Of a stretch of 64,000 nucleotides of DNA, positions 32,271 to 45,228 are shown piece after piece (positions within the stretch are counted from its first letter, which is position 1; each line of letters starts with the position of its first letter). The DNA is from Nitrosopumilus sp. (GTDB lineage: Archaea > Thermoproteota > Nitrososphaeria > Nitrososphaerales > Nitrosopumilaceae). A program made the position numbers and the translations under genes. The notes beneath the pieces are model-generated. The model made no database searches. It was not told the DNA's origin and saw only the letters and a list, made by a program, of their open reading frames with translations. The stretch lies in assembly GCA_965204345.1 (NCBI GenBank), contig OZ241981.1:992001-1056000 (forward strand), read 5' to 3'.

Positions 32271-32672
32271 TCAATGTTTAGTATCTTCAGGATTTGTTGA
32301 CCAGGGTTCTATAGTGTATGTTTCATTTTTTCCATCTATTTGCAAATTCCATAAGTTGATTAGATCTCTTCCCAAAAGAACATAGTTCCTTGGCATTGCC
32401 ACAACTTCAAAACTATCAAATTTTATATTTCCTATTTGAATACTTACAAAATAATTGAGATGGGTTGTTAGGATTCCATTTACACCTTGTACAGTTGATT
32501 CCCTTGTCTTTTTTAGCTTTAGAGTATTTACAAGATAATCTGGAATTACTGTGCGATCTGCACCTGTATCTATTTTTCCTTTTTCAGGAAAATGATCTCC
32601 AAATTTGCTCCATACAAAAAGATCTACAACCAATGAACTAGGATTCTCTGTTTTACTGTGATTGAATTTCAA
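32271..32672 (-). CDS. retropepsin-like (clan AA) aspartic protease
   Basis: IDTGA catalytic motif, VQGVNG flap, LLGRDLI. Confidence 0.88.
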   Translation of the reverse strand: MKFNHSKTENPSSLVVDLFVWSKFGDHFPEKGKIDTGADRTVIPDYLVNTLKLKKTRESTVQGVNGILTTHLNYFVSIQIGNIKFDSFEVVAMPRNYVLLGRDLINLWNLQIDGKNETYTIEPWSTNPEDTKH

Positions 32673-33127: not shown

Positions 33128-33740
33128 TTATATCATCCCCAAATTTTTTACGGAAATCTTGTATTTCAATTTTTAATGAATTTGCCCCATTATTTAATTC
33201 ATCAATTAGTTCTTTGGCATCTTTCAGACTTAATTGAAGATTAATAGTATGATCAACATCATTGTCTGATTCGTGTGTATTTATACTCAGAATTAAAGAA
33301 GGGATAATTTTTTTAATTCCTTCCTCTGCGTTGGAAATTGGTCTAAATTCTGTAATTGTCTTAAAACCATGTGTGTGTGCAAATCCAAATTCTTTAAGAA
33401 AGCTAGATGTCATGCTGGTCGATATTTTATCTAAATCCGTTTTATCATGAATTTTTTGAACTATTTCTTTTAATATTCTCTTTTTGTCTTCCTCTAATTT
33501 AGAGGTAGAAATAATTTCAAAAATCTTATCAGGATTACGTTTACCTATAGTAAAGTTGTAAAATATTGGTACGAGTTCTCTGATGTCATTTATGTCAAAA
33601 CCACTACCCAAAATTTCCTCTAATTTGGATAAATTTGGAAGTTGAGTTAAAATGGTCTCATCAAAAAAATTGCCTAACTCAATAATTTTTTCCGTAGATA
33701 TTTTATTAAAAATATCTAGTTTTGGCTGGAGATCGGACAC
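33120..33740 (-). CDS. hypothetical protein, candidate COMMD-like (helical N-domain plus COMM-like C-domain)
   Basis: 206 aa; C-terminal three-strand plus helix pattern FKTITEFRP...IPSLILSINT...INLQLSLKDAKELIDEL. Confidence 0.5.
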   Translation of the reverse strand: MSDLQPKLDIFNKISTEKIIELGNFFDETILTQLPNLSKLEEILGSGFDINDIRELVPIFYNFTIGKRNPDKIFEIISTSKLEEDKKRILKEIVQKIHDKTDLDKISTSMTSSFLKEFGFAHTHGFKTITEFRPISNAEEGIKKIIPSLILSINTHESDNDVDHTINLQLSLKDAKELIDELNNGANSLKIEIQDFRKKFGDDIID

Positions 33741-33917
33741 ATTTTTAAACTAGTATATTCATTTTAATATTTTACTCATATTTCAGATTCAGAGAAGGAT
33801 TTGTGTAGAACGATTCTAGTACTCGCCTGTCTTTACAACCAATCAAAATCTTCACTATTCAATCTTAGAGTGTTTTCATCGATTTCAAATGAATGTTAAG
33901 ATGGGGTGCTGACAAAT

Positions 33918-33978
33918 TTAAGGATGTTTTAGTGGATTATGAGGTCTTGATTGGCTGTAAGGTGACAGGTAGATGATA
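33918..33978 (+). repeat. 61-bp perfect direct repeat, copy 2
   Basis: Identical to 32154-32214; weaker similarity continues ~40 bp downstream. Confidence 0.95.
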
Positions 33979-34098
33979 CCAACGCAAAAAATCCTGACAC
34001 TAATTTTTTATAAAAAATCTGTTGCTTTGGATTTAGAACAAGCTTTTGCATGAACATTTGCTTTACAAAACATATCGGTTTTTGATTGATTTAATCTC

Positions 34099-34377
34099 TC
34101 AAACACACTTGACAGAGAATTTTTCGATTCCCACAACTATGCCCATATCAGATGTACTAAGTGTAGATATGAGTTCTCTTTTTTGTGCTTGATAGTGTAT
34201 GCTGTCGTTTGAATCTAAGTAATCTTTAGTAGCAATCACTACCTCATCTTTCATTTTTTCTAAATCAACACCTCCAATAATTATCCCAGGAATTTCCATT
34301 ACCTCAAAGGTATTATTTTTCCCATATTTTTTGTGGAGATAGGAAAACTCATGTTGTTGGTGACACAGCATTGCCAT
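34099..34377 (-). CDS. HicB-like protein
   Basis: EVMEIPGIIIGGVDLEKMKDEVVIATKDYL resembles the HicB core. Confidence 0.5.
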   Translation of the reverse strand: MAMLCHQQHEFSYLHKKYGKNNTFEVMEIPGIIIGGVDLEKMKDEVVIATKDYLDSNDSIHYQAQKRELISTLSTSDMGIVVGIEKFSVKCV

Positions 34378-34561
34378 ACTGTATGATACAAATGTATACT
34401 AATTAAAACTATAGTCAATATTCAGTACGAACACATAATATCATTTTCACGTCTGTAGAGTTTTCATATGATTCACCTTTGATTTTTTCATGAGTCAGCA
34501 TGTTTACTTAGAATACCTTTGTTGATTCACATTTTAATACATTTAAAATCATAGTATTACT

Positions 34562-34906: not shown

Positions 34907-35159
34907 TTTCTCATTTTAGCATACGGAAAATATTTGAGTCTCTAAATTCCACATTCAATCTCATGTCTTTAGATCTTAAAAAAGAGAACAACACAAAAAT
35001 CAAAATGCTGTGACATCTTTTCAGGAATGCATGCAGAGCAGATCAAGATGTTCATTTAGATGAGACAATAACACTAAGAATGTAACAACCAGAATAGAAC
35101 ATCATAAAGATCCTAAATTGGAACGCTTCTAATCCAGATGAATTTTACATTAAGTTTTT

Positions 35160-35167
35160 GACTGTTA
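35160..35167 (+). repeat. 8-bp target-site duplication GACTGTTA (also 41427-41434)
   Basis: The same 8-mer lies immediately outside both TIRs. Confidence 0.92.
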
Positions 35168-35199
35168 GGTACTGTTGCGTTCACGAGGGATAGGCACGA
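35168..35199 (+). repeat. left TIR, 32 bp
   Basis: ggtactgttgcgttcacgagggataggcacga is the exact reverse complement of 41395-41426. Confidence 0.96.
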
Positions 35200-35247
35200 A
35201 TCTGTCTGGTAACACACGTTTTAATCAAGACCTGCAAACACACCAGC

Positions 35248-35520
35248 CTACAAGTACCTGGGATCGTTTCTCTGTTCCTTGGCTTCTTTTCTGCATCTAT
35301 CACAGAGCAATACTTTGAGATCATCTTCCACATACTCTTTGAGATCATCACGCTTTTCATCACAAAATTCACAACAGATAGTGTTTCTCTTTGTATTGCC
35401 TGTTCTTTTACATTGCTTGCGCATGTGAGTCAAAATGCCCATGAACAGCACCCTGTCTGCCTTTTGATTATCATCATCATCATAGTTCAAAAAACAGACT
35501 CTGCATCTAAAGCCCGACAT
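35248..35520 (-). CDS. small Cys-rich putative Zn-finger protein (transposon cargo)
   Basis: CRVC...HMRKQC...CEFC...CDRC; overlaps the transposase stop. Confidence 0.6.
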   Translation of the reverse strand: MSGFRCRVCFLNYDDDDNQKADRVLFMGILTHMRKQCKRTGNTKRNTICCEFCDEKRDDLKEYVEDDLKVLLCDRCRKEAKEQRNDPRYL

Positions 35521-36652
35521 TTCTACTCCTCTCCAAACTTGCATTTTGCATTAGTGTGAGCCACTTGTTATCACCTGATACGAAAATCATGGATTCTTCG
35601 GCAGGCGTTTTATTATTTATGCCACTGTGATTTTTGACAAAGTTATAGTATATTCTAAATTGCCTGAACATTGAACCGTCCTCTTTTTTCAGTCCACGTC
35701 TAACTGTCTCCCAATCCCTCATGGTTCCGTTAAGACGCTCCATCTTGTTATTGTTCATGTCTCTTGCTATGTGGGTATGACGAATGTGGGAAGTCAGTTT
35801 CATGTTTGGATTTCTTTGCCTCCATTCTGCCTTCCATGCATCATGGAAGTTTGGGGCTGAATCTGAGATCAAAGTATGAGGAATCATGCCTGCCTGCTTT
35901 TCTGACATCCTAAACATTGGTCTTATGTTTTCAGTATATTTCTTATCGGATATTTGCTGTGCAATCATGAATCTTGTTTCATCATCCATCATGGTATAGA
36001 CCCATTTTGGCATACCGCTAAACTTGACATGCAGTTCATCAGTTCTCCATCTGTTAGACACCCTTGGGGTTATGGCATTTGTGTATTCGGATATCATATC
36101 AGTATATTTGACCAGCCAGCGATATATCGTGGAATGATTTACAGTCTTGCCTTCTTGCCTGAAATTATCCTTTATGCTTCTAAATGACATCTTTGAACCA
36201 GACATATTCATTGAACGTGTAATGAGTGCAGGGTCATGCTTTATTCGCTCAACCCCCAGATTGTCACTGAATTTCTTTTTGCAACTCTTACAGTAATATT
36301 TTTGAACCGTTATCATTCTGCTCTTGTTATGGCGTGTTCCATCCTTGACAATGTTGCCTGAATCACAATGTCTGCACAACCTTACCTCATTTCTCTCCAT
36401 TATGCGATAGCCCATGGATTCATCAGCCCTGTTTTTCTTGATGTTTTCTAGTGCCACTTTGATGTGTTTGCAGTCTGCCTTTCTGTCTCTATGATCAGGG
36501 CACTCACACACCAGGCCCAGGCCCGTTCTTTTGACAACATATGATGAATTGTGATTGGTCTGGGATCTTACCTGATACACACCGTCTTTGATCACTTTGA
36601 AGGCATTTGGCAGGGACATGATCTCCTTTGCCCTTTTCTGACGTCTGTTCAC
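35507..36652 (-). CDS. IS6-family DDE transposase with N-terminal SWIM and Zn-ribbon domains
   Basis: SWIM YVV...CECPD...CKH; CRHC...CKSC; HTH STIYRW; catalytic WRTDE, ISDS, NNKMER; YNFVKNHSGI..KTPAE. Confidence 0.88.
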   Translation of the reverse strand: MNRRQKRAKEIMSLPNAFKVIKDGVYQVRSQTNHNSSYVVKRTGLGLVCECPDHRDRKADCKHIKVALENIKKNRADESMGYRIMERNEVRLCRHCDSGNIVKDGTRHNKSRMITVQKYYCKSCKKKFSDNLGVERIKHDPALITRSMNMSGSKMSFRSIKDNFRQEGKTVNHSTIYRWLVKYTDMISEYTNAITPRVSNRWRTDELHVKFSGMPKWVYTMMDDETRFMIAQQISDKKYTENIRPMFRMSEKQAGMIPHTLISDSAPNFHDAWKAEWRQRNPNMKLTSHIRHTHIARDMNNNKMERLNGTMRDWETVRRGLKKEDGSMFRQFRIYYNFVKNHSGINNKTPAEESMIFVSGDNKWLTLMQNASLERSRNVGL

Positions 36653-36653
36653 A

Positions 36654-36702
36654 TTTACTTAATAAGTAAAAGCACTATAAGAGTTTTACTTAATAGGTAA
36701 AA
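36654..36702. promoter_or_regulatory. two palindromic operator-like sites in the divergent promoter
   Basis: tttacttaataagtaaa (36654-36670) and ttttacttaataggtaaaa (36684-36702). Confidence 0.6.
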
Positions 36703-36721
36703 TCTTATTAATGGTTGCAGT

Positions 36722-36889
36722 ATGATACAGGTATTGGCAACTTTTAATCTTGCAGGCTATATTTGTGACAAATGTGGACACCGATGGCCTCCCAGGTCCC
36801 TGGATAATCCAATGCCTAGGATCTGCCCAAGATGCAAGAATCCTAATTGGAATGACCAGGGAAAATCAGGCAAAAAGAAACATAAATGA
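36722..36889 (+). CDS. 55-aa Zn-ribbon protein (below the ORF-track cutoff)
   Basis: MIQVLATFNLAGYICDKCGHRWPPRSLDNPMPRICPRCKNPNWNDQGKSGKKKHK*. Confidence 0.75.
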   Translation: MIQVLATFNLAGYICDKCGHRWPPRSLDNPMPRICPRCKNPNWNDQGKSGKKKHK

Positions 36890-36961
36890 AATAAAGCAAG
36901 TACCAAAGTGGCCTCAAAGACTATGCACTCATCATCATCCACAATCAAGACAGATAAACAA

Positions 36962-39093
36962 ATGACAGATGATTATGCCAAATTTGATAAAAATCAACTA
37001 ATTGATAAGATCAAATCACGAGATAATGAAATCAAATCATTAGATAATAAAATCAAGAAACTCAAAAAGAGAAAAAAATACGGGTTGGTCTGGGATGAAG
37101 AAAAGACCGAGGAAAAATTTGATGAGCAACTCAAAAACAAACTGCCAATACTAAAGGAAGTCAAAAGTAACAGTATCTCTCTGAAAAAGGCCGGATTAAC
37201 CCAAGAATCGTCAATAGACGGGGGGGGGGTCGGCCAAAAAATACACCTTGTGACCCCACCAACATACTAATCGAAGGCGACAACTATCACGCGCTTTCAG
37301 TTTTGAATTATACGCATGAAGGTCAAATTGATGTGATCTACATTGATCCGCCGTACAATACTGGTGGAACACTCATGTATAACAATAATTATGTAGATCA
37401 GGATGATCCATACAGACATTCTAAATTTTTATCATTTTTACATAAGAGATTAAAACTAGCAAAAAATGTTTTAAAGAAAAATGGTGTGATTTGTTGTACT
37501 ATTGATGATTATGAATTGATATCTGTCTTAGGAATATTGGAAAAACTCCATGCAAAAATACTGAATATTGTTGTAATTGTGATAAAACCAGAAGGTCGTG
37601 GGCAAGACCATCATATTATGGGTTCTCATGAATATGCAATTTTTGCAACTTGGGGAGATCCAATTTCAAGAAAAATATTGCCTAGAGTTGAAATAAAACA
37701 AAATTATGATGAGGTATCCTCAGATGGCAGACAATATAGATGGGATACATTTTATCGCAGAGGAGACAAAAAGCCAAATCCGGAAAAGGAATCTAGATGG
37801 TATCCAATTTATGTTGATAGCAAAACTCTGAAAATATCTGCTAGTAAGAAAAAAGGTTACAAAAATGTATTTCCTATTGACACAAAAGGTACTAAATGGA
37901 TTTGGGATATGCTGCCTGAGGATTTTGAAGAAGAAATTAAAAATATGGATAGAAATGATCCAGAAATCATTGCAAAGAAAAATAAAAAAACAGATCAAAT
38001 AACAATTCATATTAGACGATACAAAAAATATTTTTCAAAGCCTGTATCATATTGGAAACATGAAGATTATTCTCCACAGGCATATGGCTCAAAACTTGTG
38101 CCTAGAATTATAGGTAAAGATATAAAATTTGATTATCCAAAAAGCGTTTTTGCAGTCTATGATTGTATAGATATTTTTTTACCTGAAAATGGAATATTGT
38201 TGGATTTTTTTGCAGGTTCTGGCACATCAGCACATGCAGTACAGTTACTTAATTTACGAGATATAGATATGGACAATACATTTGTTAGAAAATATGGCCA
38301 AAACTATCATACAAATACAAAATTCCTTGATCATGACGCAAAATTGTATTTGTCTAGTAATGCATTTGGTCGCAAGGAATTATCTCACGATGAACTATCA
38401 AAAAAATGGGCTTTATGGAGAAAAAATCATGGACAGAGGCAATTCATCATATGCACAAATAATGAAATTCCTGAAAAAATTCTTACTAAACTAAGGAAGC
38501 AAAAATCATGGACTAGAAAAAAAGAATTAAAACACCCAGAAGGAATATGTAAAAAAATAACATATCCAAGAATGATAGGCATTTCAAAAGGATACGGGTG
38601 GAACGAATCTCAAGCGAGAAAACTTGTCCATCCAATAAGCTCTCAAGGAGATATACTGCCATATGAAAAATCACTCACGGATAAAATTCCAAAAATCCCA
38701 TTTAGAATGAAATATTTCAAGACAGATTTCATAGAGTCTAAACGAACTGATTCAAACAGACGCAAAATAATGAAATGTATAACTGAGACATTATGCATAA
38801 AGGAAGATTGTTTCAAACTAATTCATAACCAATATCCAAAATATCATGTGTTTGCCAACAACTCACAGAGTAGATACCTGGGTATCTTATATGATAACAA
38901 AGGCGATACTATTTCTGAATTTACAAAATATGTGAAAAAAAACACCAGTCTCAAAAAAATATGCACATATGTAATGTCCTATTCTTCATACATAGACCCT
39001 GATGATTTTCAATCCATAAACAAACGTGTGGAATTACATCCAGTTCCAGACGCATTATTGGATGCATATATGAAACAACGTGGTAAGCTATGA
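36962..39093 (+). CDS. mod: Type III R-M methyltransferase (Mod), out of frame at a G10 tract
   Basis: The 5' ORF has KKYGLVWDE...LPILKEV. The next frame has NILIEGDNYHALSVL, IYIDPPYNTG, FDYPKS, LDFFAGSGTSAHAV and RQFIICTNNE. G11 or G8 joins the two frames. Confidence 0.88.
37220..37229 (+). repeat. G10 homopolymer tract inside mod
   Basis: gac-GGGGGGGGGG-tcggcc. Confidence 0.95.
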
Positions 39094-41381
39094 TCCTGTT
39101 TGAACTAAAAGACTATCAAAAAAGAGCAGCAGAAGAATTGTTGAATGAAACATCCACTGTATTATCCAAGCCCAAAAATGATGTCAGGAAGTTTGTGTTA
39201 GAGTCACCAACAGGTTCGGGTAAAACAGTCATGATGGCAGCATACATGCGAGATCTTGTTGATAAATTCACCAATATTGCGTTTATTTGGTTTGCACCAC
39301 ATACTCTCCATATACAGAGTAAGGAAAGCCTTGAAGAAAAACTTGCAGATATTAGACAGATATCCTGTAGGTACTGGGATGATCTCAATGATAACATGCT
39401 GAATTCTGGAGATATTTTGTTCATAAATTGGGCCAACCTGAATAAAGACATCAATAGAATAATTCGAGAAAATGAACAGGGTAAAAACTTTGAAAATGTA
39501 ATGTCAAACACCCGTGAGAATGGTCGAAAAATTGTACTTGTTATAGATGAATCTCATTTTGGTGCAGGAACAAATATCGCAGAACAAATCTATGACACTA
39601 TAAAACCAAATATAATCATCAATGTCTCTGCGACACCAAAGACCATTGGTGTAGGAATTAAGCGTGTTTCGGTTGAACAGCAAGAAGTTGCAGATGAAGG
39701 AATGATAAAAAAAGACATACAATATAACATGGATCTAGATGATAAAAAACCTGAAAAATTTGGAATAAGTGATGTTATAGAAAAGGCACTAAACAAGCGA
39801 AAAGAATTAAAGGAAATATTTGAGCAATTAGACGATGTTGACTCATCCAAGATTAATCCTCTGGTATTAATTCAATCACCTACTAAATCTAATCTAATAA
39901 AGGAAGATTATGTGACAGAAATTACACGCATATTAAAAATAGATCATGGCATAACAACAGACAATCAAAGATTTGCAATATGGTTATCAGATAAGAAGAT
40001 CAACACTGATAAGGATTTATTAATAGATAATGACGGTCCTGTGGAAGTATTGTTGTTCAAACAAGCAATTGCATTGGGCTGGGATTGTCCACGAGCGCAA
40101 ATACTTGCATCATTTAGAGAATGGCACGATAAGACCACACTTCCCATACAAACATTGGGCAGAATAATGCGTATGCCTGAAAGAAAACATTATGAAAATG
40201 ATGAACTCAATAGAGCCTATGTGTATTCAAATGTTAATGATATTCAAAAGGAAAAACCTGCTTATAGTGAACGTTTTTTCACTAAGACGATAAAAAGAAA
40301 GAAACAATTTGAGACTGTAAACCTTGTTCTGCCTGCGCATTACAAGAAACCTGATCGTCATAAAGAAATACTTGATCAGAAAAAATATTACGAATATTTC
40401 ATAAATCAAATAGAAAAAAATGGCATTAAAGATATCATATCAAAAGGAGAAAGTAATCCCAGTAATCCTAAAAAGGAGGTAATCAAAGGCAAAATTGAAA
40501 AACTAGATCAGGGAAATATGAGCAACGCTGTGGGAATAGATGTTCTTGTAGATGATGAAGATATAACAAAGGAATTTGATTCTGAACTAGAAAAAATTGC
40601 TGTTAAATTTGATACGCACAGCGTAATTGCAAAAATAAAACAATCCCTATACCAATATGCACATGATATCGGTTATGATAAAAATGATGATTATGAAGAC
40701 AAGTTACAAAAAATATTATTGGATGATAAAAATAAGCCTACATTTCAAGCCACAATTCAGGAGTCGTTGGAGGATTACCTAGATGAACATAGTCAAGCAC
40801 AGGTGAATAAGCCGATATCATTTGATTGGAACTTCCCTTCAAAAATTAGAGTGACATTAGATAGTAAGGCCATTCCTGTAAGTTTAGATAAATATTTGAT
40901 GGAAAAATTGGAAGAATCAAGTAAACCTCCCAGTACAGAGATTGGATTCATGAATTATCTGAACAACCAATGTTCAGGTGTAAAATGGTGGTACAAGAAT
41001 GGTAGTGCAAATTCTAGGGAAAATTTTGCTGTAAAATATACTGAACCACTAGAGGATGATTCAAAAGGTGTCAAAGAAAATTGTTTCTATGTGGACTTTA
41101 TAGTCTGTTGTAAAGACGGTTCAATTGGACTCTTTGATACCAAGGGTGGAATACACATCGAAGTGGGTAATACAAAACACAAATCTGACGGTCTTCAAAA
41201 ATACATACAAGAGATGAATAAATCATACAAAGATAATGATCTGTTATCTGGTGGTAAAAGAGTTAGATTTTGGGGCGGCATTGTTAAAAAAGAGGGCGAA
41301 ATATGGAAGTACAATCCTAGTAAAAAATATCATTACGAAAAGGGCTGGGAATCATTGCTGATATGTGAAAAACCAAGTTAA
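39090..41381 (+). CDS. res: Type III R-M restriction subunit (SF2 helicase plus PD-(D/E)XK nuclease)
   Basis: SPTGSGKT, IDESH, SATP, GWDCPRAQ, QTLGRIMR, FYVDFIV...LFDTKG; ATGA overlap with mod. Confidence 0.92.
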   Translation: MILFELKDYQKRAAEELLNETSTVLSKPKNDVRKFVLESPTGSGKTVMMAAYMRDLVDKFTNIAFIWFAPHTLHIQSKESLEEKLADIRQISCRYWDDLNDNMLNSGDILFINWANLNKDINRIIRENEQGKNFENVMSNTRENGRKIVLVIDESHFGAGTNIAEQIYDTIKPNIIINVSATPKTIGVGIKRVSVEQQEVADEGMIKKDIQYNMDLDDKKPEKFGISDVIEKALNKRKELKEIFEQLDDVDSSKINPLVLIQSPTKSNLIKEDYVTEITRILKIDHGITTDNQRFAIWLSDKKINTDKDLLIDNDGPVEVLLFKQAIALGWDCPRAQILASFREWHDKTTLPIQTLGRIMRMPERKHYENDELNRAYVYSNVNDIQKEKPAYSERFFTKTIKRKKQFETVNLVLPAHYKKPDRHKEILDQKKYYEYFINQIEKNGIKDIISKGESNPSNPKKEVIKGKIEKLDQGNMSNAVGIDVLVDDEDITKEFDSELEKIAVKFDTHSVIAKIKQSLYQYAHDIGYDKNDDYEDKLQKILLDDKNKPTFQATIQESLEDYLDEHSQAQVNKPISFDWNFPSKIRVTLDSKAIPVSLDKYLMEKLEESSKPPSTEIGFMNYLNNQCSGVKWWYKNGSANSRENFAVKYTEPLEDDSKGVKENCFYVDFIVCCKDGSIGLFDTKGGIHIEVGNTKHKSDGLQKYIQEMNKSYKDNDLLSGGKRVRFWGGIVKKEGEIWKYNPSKKYHYEKGWESLLICEKPS

Positions 41382-41394
41382 CCTGATTTAGCTC

Positions 41395-41426
41395 TCGTGC
41401 CTATCCCTCGTGAACGCAACAGTACC
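41395..41426 (-). repeat. right TIR, 32 bp
   Basis: tcgtgcctatccctcgtgaacgcaacagtacc. Confidence 0.96.
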
Positions 41427-41457
41427 GACTGTTAAGATAGGCACGTAAAGTATCAAG

Positions 41458-41750: not shown

Positions 41751-43415
41751 ATGAATTTGCCTGAACCCATGAATAAGCAATTTTCAAGCTTGATGGATGA
41801 TGTGTCTTCGGGCAGATTAAAAATACCACAGTTTCAGCGGGATTTTGTTTGGGACATAAAAAAATCAGCAAGTTTGTTAGACAGTATCATAAAAGGATAT
41901 CCGGTTGGAACTTTTATTTTCTGGAAGACAAGAGAACGACTTCGATCTGTAAAAGACATAGGGAATTTGAATTTGCCTGAACCTGAGAAAGGGGATTATG
42001 TGAATTTTGTACTTGATGGCCAACAAAGAATAACAAGTCTATTTGCAGCACTAAAAGGTGAAACCATCAGACGAAGCAATGGAAAGGAGGAAGATTTTTC
42101 AAAAATCTTCATCGATCTAGAAGCCAAAGAAGATGAGAAGATCATAACAACAGAAATACACAATAAAAATGAGGGGCAAATAATCAAGTTAGAAACTCTT
42201 CTGTATGGAGGCCTGACAGTATTGTCAGATTATGATTCCAGATATCATCAAAGGTTAGACGAATACAAAAAGAGAATACAGTCATACAACTATTCAGTTA
42301 TTCAAGTAAATAATGTGCCTATTGATGTAGCTACAGAGATTTTTACGAGGATAAACGTAGGAGGTAGACCCCTTTCATTATTTGAGATAATGGTAGCCAA
42401 GACCTATGATTATGATAAGAATTTTGATTTATCAGAGAAATTCGATGCCATGATAGAAAAGCTAGATGATGTAAATTATGAAACGTTATCAGATGCAACC
42501 ATACTGCAGGTCATTTCTCTCATACTAACAAAGGAATGTAAGCGTAAAGTCATTTTATCACTAAAAAAAGAGGACATAATTGAAATCTGGGAGGAGGTCA
42601 TGGATGCTATAGAAAGAACAGTAGATTATTTTAGAAATTATTACCGAATTCCTGTTTCTAATTTGTTACCCTATAACGCTCTGATAGTGCCTTTTGCTTA
42701 TTTCTTCTACAACCATAAAGACAAACCAATAGGAAATATGCAGAAATATCTAGAAGACTTTTTCTGGAGAATTTCATTATCTGGCAGATATTCTTCTGCT
42801 GTAGAAAGCAAGCTTGCCCAAGACACAAAGCGAATTGATAAAATTCTAAATGCAGAATTGCCTGAATATGATTGGGCAATAGATAGATCTGCAGAATACA
42901 TCAAACATAATGGATGGTTCAGTGCCGGAAGAAGCTACATCAAAGCGATTCTTTGCATTTATACATATTATCAACCCAAGTCTTTTGTTGACAATTCTCT
43001 TGTTAACATAAACAATGATTGGCTCAAACAAGCAAATAGCAAAAATTATCATCATTTTTTCCCAAAAGCATATTTAAAGAAATTAAATGAAAGTGAAGAA
43101 AAGATCAACCACATTTTGAACATTACTATTGTGGACGACTTTCTAAATAAGAGAAAAATCAAGCAGAATCCTCCTTCAACATATATGGAGGATTTCAGAA
43201 AAAACAATCCTCAGCTTTCTGAAACTATGAAGACACATCTAATAGACGACTTGGATAATTTTGGAATATGGATAAATGATTATCAAAGGTTCATAGACAA
43301 ACGAGCAAGAAGAATATCCGAAGAAATTGAAAAAAGAATCATCAGGCAGGAGATCGATAAACAGCCTCAACCAGAATTGTTGGAAGATTATTCAGAAGTA
43401 ATAGAAATAGAATGA
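41751..43415 (+). CDS. GmrSD-like (DUF262 plus HNH-type) modification-dependent restriction protein
   Basis: IPQFQRDFVW, LDGQQRITS, IFTRIN, HHFFPK...NITIV...N. Confidence 0.85.
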   Translation: MNLPEPMNKQFSSLMDDVSSGRLKIPQFQRDFVWDIKKSASLLDSIIKGYPVGTFIFWKTRERLRSVKDIGNLNLPEPEKGDYVNFVLDGQQRITSLFAALKGETIRRSNGKEEDFSKIFIDLEAKEDEKIITTEIHNKNEGQIIKLETLLYGGLTVLSDYDSRYHQRLDEYKKRIQSYNYSVIQVNNVPIDVATEIFTRINVGGRPLSLFEIMVAKTYDYDKNFDLSEKFDAMIEKLDDVNYETLSDATILQVISLILTKECKRKVILSLKKEDIIEIWEEVMDAIERTVDYFRNYYRIPVSNLLPYNALIVPFAYFFYNHKDKPIGNMQKYLEDFFWRISLSGRYSSAVESKLAQDTKRIDKILNAELPEYDWAIDRSAEYIKHNGWFSAGRSYIKAILCIYTYYQPKSFVDNSLVNINNDWLKQANSKNYHHFFPKAYLKKLNESEEKINHILNITIVDDFLNKRKIKQNPPSTYMEDFRKNNPQLSETMKTHLIDDLDNFGIWINDYQRFIDKRARRISEEIEKRIIRQEIDKQPQPELLEDYSEVIEIE

Positions 43416-44403: not shown

Positions 44404-45228
44404 GTGACACAAAATATACGATTAGGATCACAAGAAAATAAGCTACTATTCAGCTTGGAAACGAAGAAAATAAGCGTCTTTACCTTCAGTGATGCCCGAA
44501 ATATTCTTCAAGGAACCGATTCTGCAACATGGAATGTAATTGGAAGGCTGAAAAAAAAGAAGAGATTACAAGAGATAGAAGGCGGAAAATATCTTCTAGT
44601 ACCAGCTAGAGCTGGTCTTGAAGGATATTGGTCTGAGGATCCTTGGCTAATCGTACCTCAGCTAATTGATGAATATTATGTAGCATTTTGGACTGCAATG
44701 AACTTTTGGGGCATGACAGAGCAGATACCATACACTGTTTTTGTTGCAACTCCAAAAAGAAAGAAAAAACGAATCTTAGAATTTGGAAATCAAAAATTCC
44801 AATTTGTAACTATATCAAAAAAGAAATTTTTTGGGCATGTTGAACAAAAAATAGGAAAAAATAATCATTTTTACATTTCCTCTAGAGAAAAAACAATTGT
44901 GGATGGATTAACTCATCCAGAATATTGTAGTGGAATAGTGGAGGTAACAAAAGCAATGTGGAATTCACGAAGAGAAGCTGATTGGAAAACCATTCTTGCA
45001 ATGGCAAAGAAAGTAGAGATTAACGTGGTTTTACGCAGATTGGGATACCTATTAACGGTTCTTAACATAGAGAAAAATATCTCCTCAAAAATTAAAAAAG
45101 AGATAGTTTGTTATCCTTATAATTTTCTTGATCCTACAACGGCCAAAATCAGAATTTCGTATTCAAAGGATTTTGGATTAATATTGAATAGAACTAGAGA
45201 CGAACTAACAAGCTGGATGGAGTATTAG
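44404..45228 (+). CDS. type IV TA AbiEi-family antitoxin
   Basis: wHTH N-terminus, GKYLLVP, YYVAFWTAMNFWGMTEQIP, FFG, SREKTIVD, RRLGYLL. Confidence 0.88.
   Translation: MTQNIRLGSQENKLLFSLETKKISVFTFSDARNILQGTDSATWNVIGRLKKKKRLQEIEGGKYLLVPARAGLEGYWSEDPWLIVPQLIDEYYVAFWTAMNFWGMTEQIPYTVFVATPKRKKKRILEFGNQKFQFVTISKKKFFGHVEQKIGKNNHFYISSREKTIVDGLTHPEYCSGIVEVTKAMWNSRREADWKTILAMAKKVEINVVLRRLGYLLTVLNIEKNISSKIKKEIVCYPYNFLDPTTAKIRISYSKDFGLILNRTRDELTSWMEY

Follow-up and report, generated by a model that had tools for sequence, protein, structure and literature searches.

Repeat-driven switching of methylases is a textbook example of bet-hedging in host-adapted bacteria. It is known from the phase-variable Type III mod genes (phasevarions) of Haemophilus, Neisseria and Helicobacter, such as modA and modH, and related poly-G contingency loci are known from Campylobacter and Helicobacter. 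In Type III systems the Res protein depends on Mod for DNA recognition. A survey by Atack et al. 2018 (PMC5909438) found repeats in 662 of 3805 mod genes; in the portions available it speaks of the bacterial domain, and for the terms searched neither its text nor its supplement names an archaeon. Here we describe a Type III mod gene, interrupted at a run of ten G residues (G10), from an archaeon of the ammonia-oxidiser type that occurs in sponge metagenomes. It lies in a window of 64,000 nucleotides (nt) of Nitrosopumilus sp. (GCA_965204345.1, contig OZ241981.1, positions 992,001-1,056,000 of the forward strand). The window means this whole stretch, and positions without a prefix refer to it, while positions with the prefix C1 refer to contig C1 of the same genome (G000). 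Together with res, mod is located inside a transposon of 6,259 base pairs (bp; 35168-41426). The best reading of the locus is a slippage-driven, phase-variable mod gene caught in its OFF state, to which we assign a probability of about 0.6.

The mod gene and its G10 tract

The following features make up the operon (aa, amino acids; ORF, open reading frame):

36962 (ATG) to 37268-37270 (stop), plus strand: upstream mod frame (frame A), 102 aa ending in SSIDGGGVGQKIHLVTPPTY before the stop, consisting of 86 Mod N-terminal residues and 16 out-of-frame residues
37220-37229, plus strand: G10 homopolymer, the frameshift site; G11 or G8 would give a single frame
37228-39093, plus strand: downstream mod frame (frame B), with the DPPY motif, the target-recognition region, the FAGSGT motif and the C-terminus, and with matches to PF01555, PADLOC and PDB entries
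39090-41381, plus strand: res, 763 aa, with matches to ResIII (2.2e-21) and PADLOC REase_III (4.8e-18)

The tract is exactly ten G long, occupies positions 37220-37229 and falls on codon 87 of mod. The open stretch of frame B begins at 37171 and ends with the stop at 39091-39093; DPPY and the N6_N4_Mtase domain (PF01555, 2e-22) are encoded in it. Frame A starts at 2 modulo 3 and frame B at 1 modulo 3, and fusion of the two needs +1 (G11) or -2 (G8). G11 would lead to a protein of 710 aa, and the G8-equivalent read-through, in which the tract was taken as two four-base steps (GGGG=G), gave 709 aa with no further stop. No second lesion was present over the 2.1 kilobases (kb) of mod. An earlier reading of this DNA, made from the sequence only, had claimed a G10 run where two otherwise intact mod frames overlap and a single protein of about 710 aa with G11 or G8, and every detail of this agreed with our analysis. 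It had also called the run the sole long one in the element and res and the transposase undamaged. This was correct as well: the genome-wide run census contained no other G/C run of at least 7 in 35168-41426, and both genes are uninterrupted ORFs (763 aa and 381 aa).

Frame A aligned with the N-termini of intact homologues (KYGLVWDEE...KLPILKE; KLPVL). In an alignment of 13 homologues, these matched frame B from NILIEGDNYHAL onward with 39-63% identity. The whole read-through aligned with Mod proteins of 550-713 aa at 39-63% identity, and its catalytic motifs are retained. With residues 1-300 of the read-through as query, thousands of methylases were retrieved, and intact proteins of 549-713 aa covered 90-100% of the query. 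These alignments indicate that the two frames are one broken mod gene and not two genes.

The G10 codes for Gly-Gly-Gly within an insert of about 20 residues (GLTQESSIDGGGRPKNTPCD), which is missing from 12 of the 13 aligned homologues. Among 105 proteins with the anchoring motif, GGG in this linker was found only in the query and in protein P0009 (57% identity, in-frame ...IRGGGVESKT...), where the poly-G is inferred from the GGG of the protein only. The chance expectation of a G10 in a 2.1-kb gene at about 19% G is approximately 1e-4. In a gene of about 36% GC such a tract cannot be due to chance.

The assignment of the gene as a genuine Type III mod, already made in the sequence-only reading, was confirmed. 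The top 12 PADLOC matches of Mod were all to MTase_III models (best 1.7e-49), ahead of MTase_II (2.3e-16), and its catalytic core matched the solved Type III Mod structures 7dsu (Mbo45V, 3.6e-23), 6k0w (1.6e-18) and 4zcf (EcoP15I, 6.9e-13). The order of motifs is that of the beta class, with motif IV (DPPY) ahead of motif I (FxGxG; here FAGSGT) and the recognition region between them. The ATG start codon of res overlaps the mod stop (ATGA, 39090-39093). Res had no domain match past residue 385 in Pfam or PADLOC and no sequence match among solved structures. From these matches and from the gene order, we conclude that mod and res, in this order, form a Type III restriction-modification operon with predicted translational coupling.

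In the mechanism that we propose, the poly-G would be a hypermutable tract about 87 codons into mod, within a linker that the protein can do without, and replication slippage would lengthen or shorten it in steps of one G. The ON state with full-length Mod would be G11 or G8, and G10, G9 and G12 would be OFF states; in the assembled G10 form translation would end after 102 residues. Since Res needs Mod for DNA recognition and the res start overlaps the mod stop, an OFF state should silence methylation and restriction without harm, and the whole Type III system would thus be safely switched off. For a gene on a transposon this might permit silent arrival in a new, unmethylated genome, which is speculation. 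Reversible switching at this tract, together with any benefit from it, we infer.

Poly-G tracts in other methylase genes and across the genome

A second methylase of the same genome is also split by a G10:

C1:722150-723021 (L043:2395-3266), minus strand: second methylase, Type II-like, with SPPY motif; G10 at C1:722756-722765

Its upstream ORF corresponds to positions 2-35 of PF01555 and its downstream ORF to positions 39-220, and the read-through of 289 aa covers positions 6-271 of the 292 of PADLOC MTase_II (4.5e-93). Homologues were present in 4 of 400 genomes of the family, and the two closest, from two other genera, have a poly-G at the same W-G-G-G codon site. In G080 (L063) the tract is G9 and the identity 78%; in G071 (L064), where the locus has 68% GC, it is G10 and the identity 66%. 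Both genes are split and their flanks are open. Both need -1 or +2 to be restored, whereas the copy in this genome needs +1 or -2. Among the database homologues, P0246 (77%) has the intact WGGGI form, and P0261 and P0305 begin just before GGG; in these the poly-G is inferred from the proteins. More distant homologues showed only W-G-x at the site. We consider this tract the strongest case for switching in our analysis. A tract that is kept across genera in the ON and in both OFF phases, while the rest of the gene stays intact, would be predicted by reversible switching and also by slippage decoding, but not by a one-way pseudogene. As a side observation, the second methylase gene adjoins a Dsr1-like sirtuin defence gene.

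Further tracts were found in Type III and Type II methylase genes of related archaea. Of the 15 family genomes with a Mod homologue, this genome included, 3 have a poly-G of at least 10 in it. The other two, G303 and G347, belong to the same genus, and their genes, each followed by res, represent a longer subfamily of Type III Mods. The tract of G303 is a G11 inside an intact ORF of 946 aa and is therefore in frame, while that of G347 is a G16 at the junction of two frames and is out of frame. The two tracts are at different positions of homologous proteins, so their origins were independent. In G195, which was chosen for its many poly-G runs and not for methylases, a Type II methylase is split by a G10, and no start codon precedes the SPPY motif in the catalytic frame. 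Its read-through of 408 aa covers positions 23-399 of the 404 of PADLOC MTase_II. Another locus of G195 (L046, G11) was not counted because it is ambiguous, with the tract in the 3' part of an upstream ORF of 419 aa, about 50 nt before the methylase start. A partial PF01555 match in G291 came from an unrelated methylase that has no tract.

A homologue of the Mod in the window was found in 14 of the 400 family genomes; these were intact, with at most 46% identity over long matches, and the tract was missing. In public contig collections the search for close Mod relatives gave 4 loci with at most 42% identity among genome contigs and 10 loci with at most 43% among metagenome contigs, and viral contigs gave no match to the tract flank. 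Recurrence of the tract in mod homologues of related genomes, a point raised with the sequence-only reading, thus holds in part: among the loci compared, the other members of this Mod subfamily lack the tract, and poly-G tracts occur in other methylase genes, both in and out of frame.

These loci also bear on the possibility that the frameshift is decoded, with RNA polymerase slippage or ribosomal frameshifting allowing G10 DNA to yield a steady low amount of full-length Mod. The conservation, in three genera, of tracts that are out of frame between intact flanks is the pattern of slippage-rescued genes, as described in the accessible part of PMC3711429, and +1 would restore three G10 cases as well as the G16 case. 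However, in the same part of that source, productive transcriptional slippage sites are known mostly as A/T runs. Moreover, -1 or +2 is required at the tracts of G080 and G071, and forms already in frame exist (the G11 of G303; P0246), so that no single recoding rule fits. We regard decoding as improbable, and a phase-variable mod gene remains our preferred reading.

Across the genome, long G/C runs were more frequent than expected. The main contig has 136, 41, 7, 3, 6 and 2 G/C runs of lengths 6, 7, 8, 9, 10 and 11, respectively, and the corresponding numbers for the whole genome are 143, 42, 7, 3, 6 and 2. Eight runs of at least 10 were observed, versus 0 (order-3 Markov model) to 0.67 (order-5) expected, while runs of length 9 were not in excess. 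None of the 18 runs of at least 8 was inside a long intact frame. Two of the eight runs of at least 10 are in methylase genes (mod and C1:722756-722765), and the others are intergenic. A profile search of the 99.7%-complete genome did not find the MutS_V and NucS_C domains, while the controls were detected. A wider reading would be a family-wide, multi-locus poly-G switching, in which several Type II and Type III methylases per lineage would flip without MutS or NucS, giving mixed methylomes and defence states; selection would maintain some tracts across genera, and the IS6-like transposon would spread a Type III system that could arrive silently in the OFF state and later turn ON. We put this forward as tentative, being possible rather than probable.

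One of the intergenic runs, a G11 at C1:1807483-1807493 (L045/L050), starts 17 nt past the TFB stop codon and precedes a T-rich stretch. A G-rich element after TFB was conserved in 12 of 12 genomes (this one and 11 of the same genus) with lengths of G4 to G11, some of them interrupted. Tract lengths therefore drift in this lineage. It may belong to a terminator or have a regulatory role.

One shorter run is located at the start of a gene:

C1:14401-14412 (L036:1998-2009): G9 after the ATG of an Ig-like protein, a layout classic for a switchable surface protein

The protein is secreted, exceeds 1,300 aa and has Big_12 Ig-like repeats; the G9, right after the ATG, is in frame (M-G-G-G, then the signal peptide). 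The distribution of runs of G10 or longer in the genus was uneven: 47 of 101 genomes had none, and several larger genomes (1.9-2.6 megabases) had tens. Some of these matches are at contig ends and may be sequencing artefacts.

State of the tract in sequencing runs and fate of the transposon

Read evidence came from Logan contigs (de Bruijn assemblies) of X1, X2, X8 and X11, four of 14 runs available in this form; such contigs drop rare variants and therefore reflect the majority state only. The runs with window sequence were sponge metagenomes from three studies and four runs that perhaps belong to the source of the assembly. X8 and X11 are two samples, and the assembly may have been made from the runs X8-X11. 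A contig of X8 (36101-37346, depth 131) and a contig of X11 (36101-37365, depth 58) both had G10, with 0 differences and 0 gaps to the window. The listed contig pieces of X1 and X2 do not span 36986-37335.

These contigs are relevant for the question of whether the tract was under-called, the true length being G11 and the gene intact. In favor of this, the four out-of-frame methylase tracts (three G10, one G16) would all be mended by +1. Also, X8-X11 may equal the assembly data, and long single-contig assemblies are often derived from long reads. However, the contigs of two runs from two samples gave G10 at full local depth and without branching. A frameshift signature was seen at 4 of 553 A/T runs of at least 8 (0.7%), as compared to 156 of 20,000 random positions (0.8%), and the assembly is therefore not generally wrong at homopolymers. 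Since the X8 and X11 contigs have G10 and genes are not split more often at A/T runs than at random positions, an assembly error is unlikely. In addition, other tracts are in frame (the G9 after ATG; the G11 of G303), and at those of G080 and G071 the frame is shifted the other way. Of the explanations considered here we find an under-call the hardest to believe.

The transposon has the following parts besides mod and res:

35160-35167, no strand: left 8-bp target-site duplication (GACTGTTA), the same as 41427-41434; the joint from 35159 to 41427 has 8 letters that fit both sides
35168-35199, plus strand: left terminal inverted repeat, 32 bp, 100% reverse-complement of 41395-41426
35507-36652, minus strand: IS6-like DDE transposase, 381 aa, with N-terminal zinc-binding domain
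36722-36889, plus strand: small ORF between transposase and mod, 55 aa, with two CxxC pairs (zinc-ribbon-like) in its translation
41395-41426, minus strand: right terminal inverted repeat, 32 bp, perfect match to the left repeat
41427-41434, no strand: right 8-bp target-site duplication (GACTGTTA), equal to the left copy

The transposase matched the Pfam domains DDE_Tnp_IS240 (3.2e-8) and rve (1.2e-6), and zinc-binding domains cover residues 92-129. Its best NCBIfam match was transpos_IS6 (2.5e-22) with 79.6 bits, which is below the cut-off of 125 bits, and IS481 and IS1 models matched as well. The target duplication of IS6 elements typically has 8 bp. No additional repeat copy was found between the transposase and mod; we therefore consider the transposase, the zinc-ribbon-like ORF, mod and res to form a single element. 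In the Logan contigs, the loose ends of other insertions begin at 35167/35168. In nature the insertion is polymorphic: the empty-site allele, with the joint from 35159 to 41427, was detected in contigs of all four runs compared. Support was strong in X1 (a contig of 2,413 nt with 216 nt on the shorter side, depth 155 versus about 12 for mod-res) and in X2 (54 nt), and weaker in X8 and X11 (22 nt). The inverted repeats, the target-site duplication and the empty-site allele bear out the earlier claim that mod is carried by a transposon. As to the small ORF at 36722-36889, it may encode a small zinc-ribbon regulator.

The contigs also revealed an internally deleted derivative of the transposon (joints from 37365 to 40144 and from 40205 to 41321), which lost most of mod and res and kept the tract-bearing 5' end. 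It was rare in X8 and X11 (depth about 4).

Several results speak against a switch. No heterogeneity of tract length was seen: among the contigs listed, both that cover the tract (X8 and X11) read G10 without branching. No protein of the ON form with more than 65% identity was present among the best 120 full-length and the best 120 short matches listed, for which the best non-self identities were 65% and 63%, respectively. The tract is lineage-specific, and among 32 related loci elsewhere none in this Mod subfamily has an internal G/C run of at least 7. What points to reversibility does so by analogy, from other methylase genes. The deleted derivative is the majority form in X1, with a depth of 87 versus 12 for the intact cargo, and in the population the cargo is therefore also undergoing plain decay. 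Little can be read from the absence of further lesions, as the transposon is young. Finally, as seen for the conserved intergenic element after TFB, not every long G tract is a switch.

Part of this evidence would also fit a plain pseudogene. In that case the G tract was already present, one deletion by slippage inactivated mod while the transposon decayed, and the result would be effectively permanent and useless to the cell. Only G10 was seen, no ON allele was among the database matches listed, deleted derivatives dominate X1, and a truncated copy of the insertion sequence (IS) is present at C1:1061226-1062348. Other methylase loci are clearly dead in this genome, as is the one at C1:275230-276537 with 5 in-frame stops. 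On the other hand, mod has no second lesion in its 2.1 kb. A pseudogene of this kind also presupposes that the tract existed while the gene worked, and with MutS and NucS not found this already implies frequent change between ON and OFF. Furthermore, the frameshifted tract of the second methylase persists in three genera with intact flanks, which would not be expected for a one-way pseudogene. We judge this explanation unlikely. Of the earlier proposal of a phase-variable switch on a transposon, the Type III mod, the poly-G frameshift and the transposon stand; only G10 was seen, and switching was not demonstrated. On balance we favor the phase-variable mod gene in its OFF state.

Elements of about 320 bp that resemble miniature inverted-repeat transposable elements and are built of the ends of the IS (window positions 35168-35240 and 41374-41426) occur in many copies throughout the genome:

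C1:187524-187844: MITE-like copy
C1:1199516-1199838: MITE-like copy
C1:1701047-1701358: MITE-like copy
C1:1711378-1711694: MITE-like copy
C1:1436992-1437331: MITE-like copy

The transposon is inserted in a defence island. Just to its right is the gene of a protein with a GmrSD_N domain (PADLOC PDC-M55C/HEC-05; 41751-43415, plus strand), and an AbiEi antitoxin-like gene is present at 44404-45228 (plus strand). Left of the transposon, a structural polymorphism was seen in all four runs, with a joint from 33570 to 34443 that drops 872 bases and has 47 other letters instead. An ORF of 133 aa at 32271-32672 (minus strand) contains a retroviral-type aspartyl protease domain (Asp_protease_2, 3.5e-10). 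Elsewhere in the genome, an A8 run (C1:1547176-1547183) is located where two very long frames of 1,100 aa upstream and 1,075 aa downstream meet, and these may be one giant gene with a frameshift or recoding. A G9 at C1:1539993 is located between two 33-nt direct repeats; a CRISPR reading of it was rejected, as no array was found.

Comparison with known systems

The literature searched included PMC3711429, PMC10609329, PMC13076061, PMC5909438, PMC11033074, PMC11868660, PMC3315296, PMC2831843 and bioRxiv 10.1101/2025.10.21.683753, each as far as its text was available. In this full-text literature, with subscription papers outside the scope, we found no archaeal repeat-bearing mod gene or methylase switch, in line with the sequence-only reading, which knew of no archaeal example. 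A homopolymer study of 2010 included 18 archaeal genomes and reports mostly poly-A/T; methylases are not mentioned in the parts available. One preprint states, in the portion accessible, that there have been studies of contingency loci in archaea. The phase-variation review of 2025 (PMC11868660) names the distribution across archaeal phylogenies as future work in the sections available. In the archaeal restriction-modification surveys searched, phase-variable systems appear, within the accessible text, only in the introduction or the reference list. Bacterial-style on/off switching of methylases in archaea has apparently not been described before.

If the phase-variable reading is true, slippage switching also works with the archaeal replication machinery. 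It would then be present in ecologically important nitrifiers, sponge associates included, and could account for strain-level variation of methylomes and virus resistance in metagenomes. If the family-wide reading is true, it would be the first archaeal counterpart of phasevarions and contingency loci, in nitrifiers that are non-pathogenic and partly host-associated. There is also a practical warning, as genes split by a tract get annotated as truncated or as pseudogenes.

Of the enzymes, those of the EcoP15I type are similar in the sequence of the catalytic core and in the beta-class motif order. Unlike them, the Res described here is shorter (763 aa), and the lineage-specific linker insert of Mod bears the tract. 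The transposon resembles insertion sequences of the IS6/IS26 family, since IS6 is the best match of the transposase and terminal inverted repeats and an 8-bp target duplication are present. It differs in that the transposase match is below the NCBIfam cut-off, that the inverted repeats have 32 bp, and that 4.7 kb of passenger genes lie between the element's own ends and are not flanked by two IS copies.

In common with the poly-G contingency loci of Campylobacter and Helicobacter, the genome has a bimodal distribution of G/C run lengths with an excess at 10-11, tracts within methylases and at the beginning of a gene for a surface protein, and no MutS_V or NucS_C in the profile search. In contrast to those genomes, only 8 tracts of at least 10 are present, mostly intergenic, and at least one of the intergenic tracts represents a conserved element and not a switch. 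Compared to the phase-variable mod genes of bacteria, the host here is an archaeon, the gene resides inside an IS6-like transposon, and the system is known from its sequence and not from observed switching or a regulon. Like the phasevarion genes, this mod has its repeat in the 5' part of the ORF, where a frameshift would set ON or OFF, and is followed by a res gene whose product depends on Mod, and the genome, like theirs, has several repeat-bearing methylase genes.

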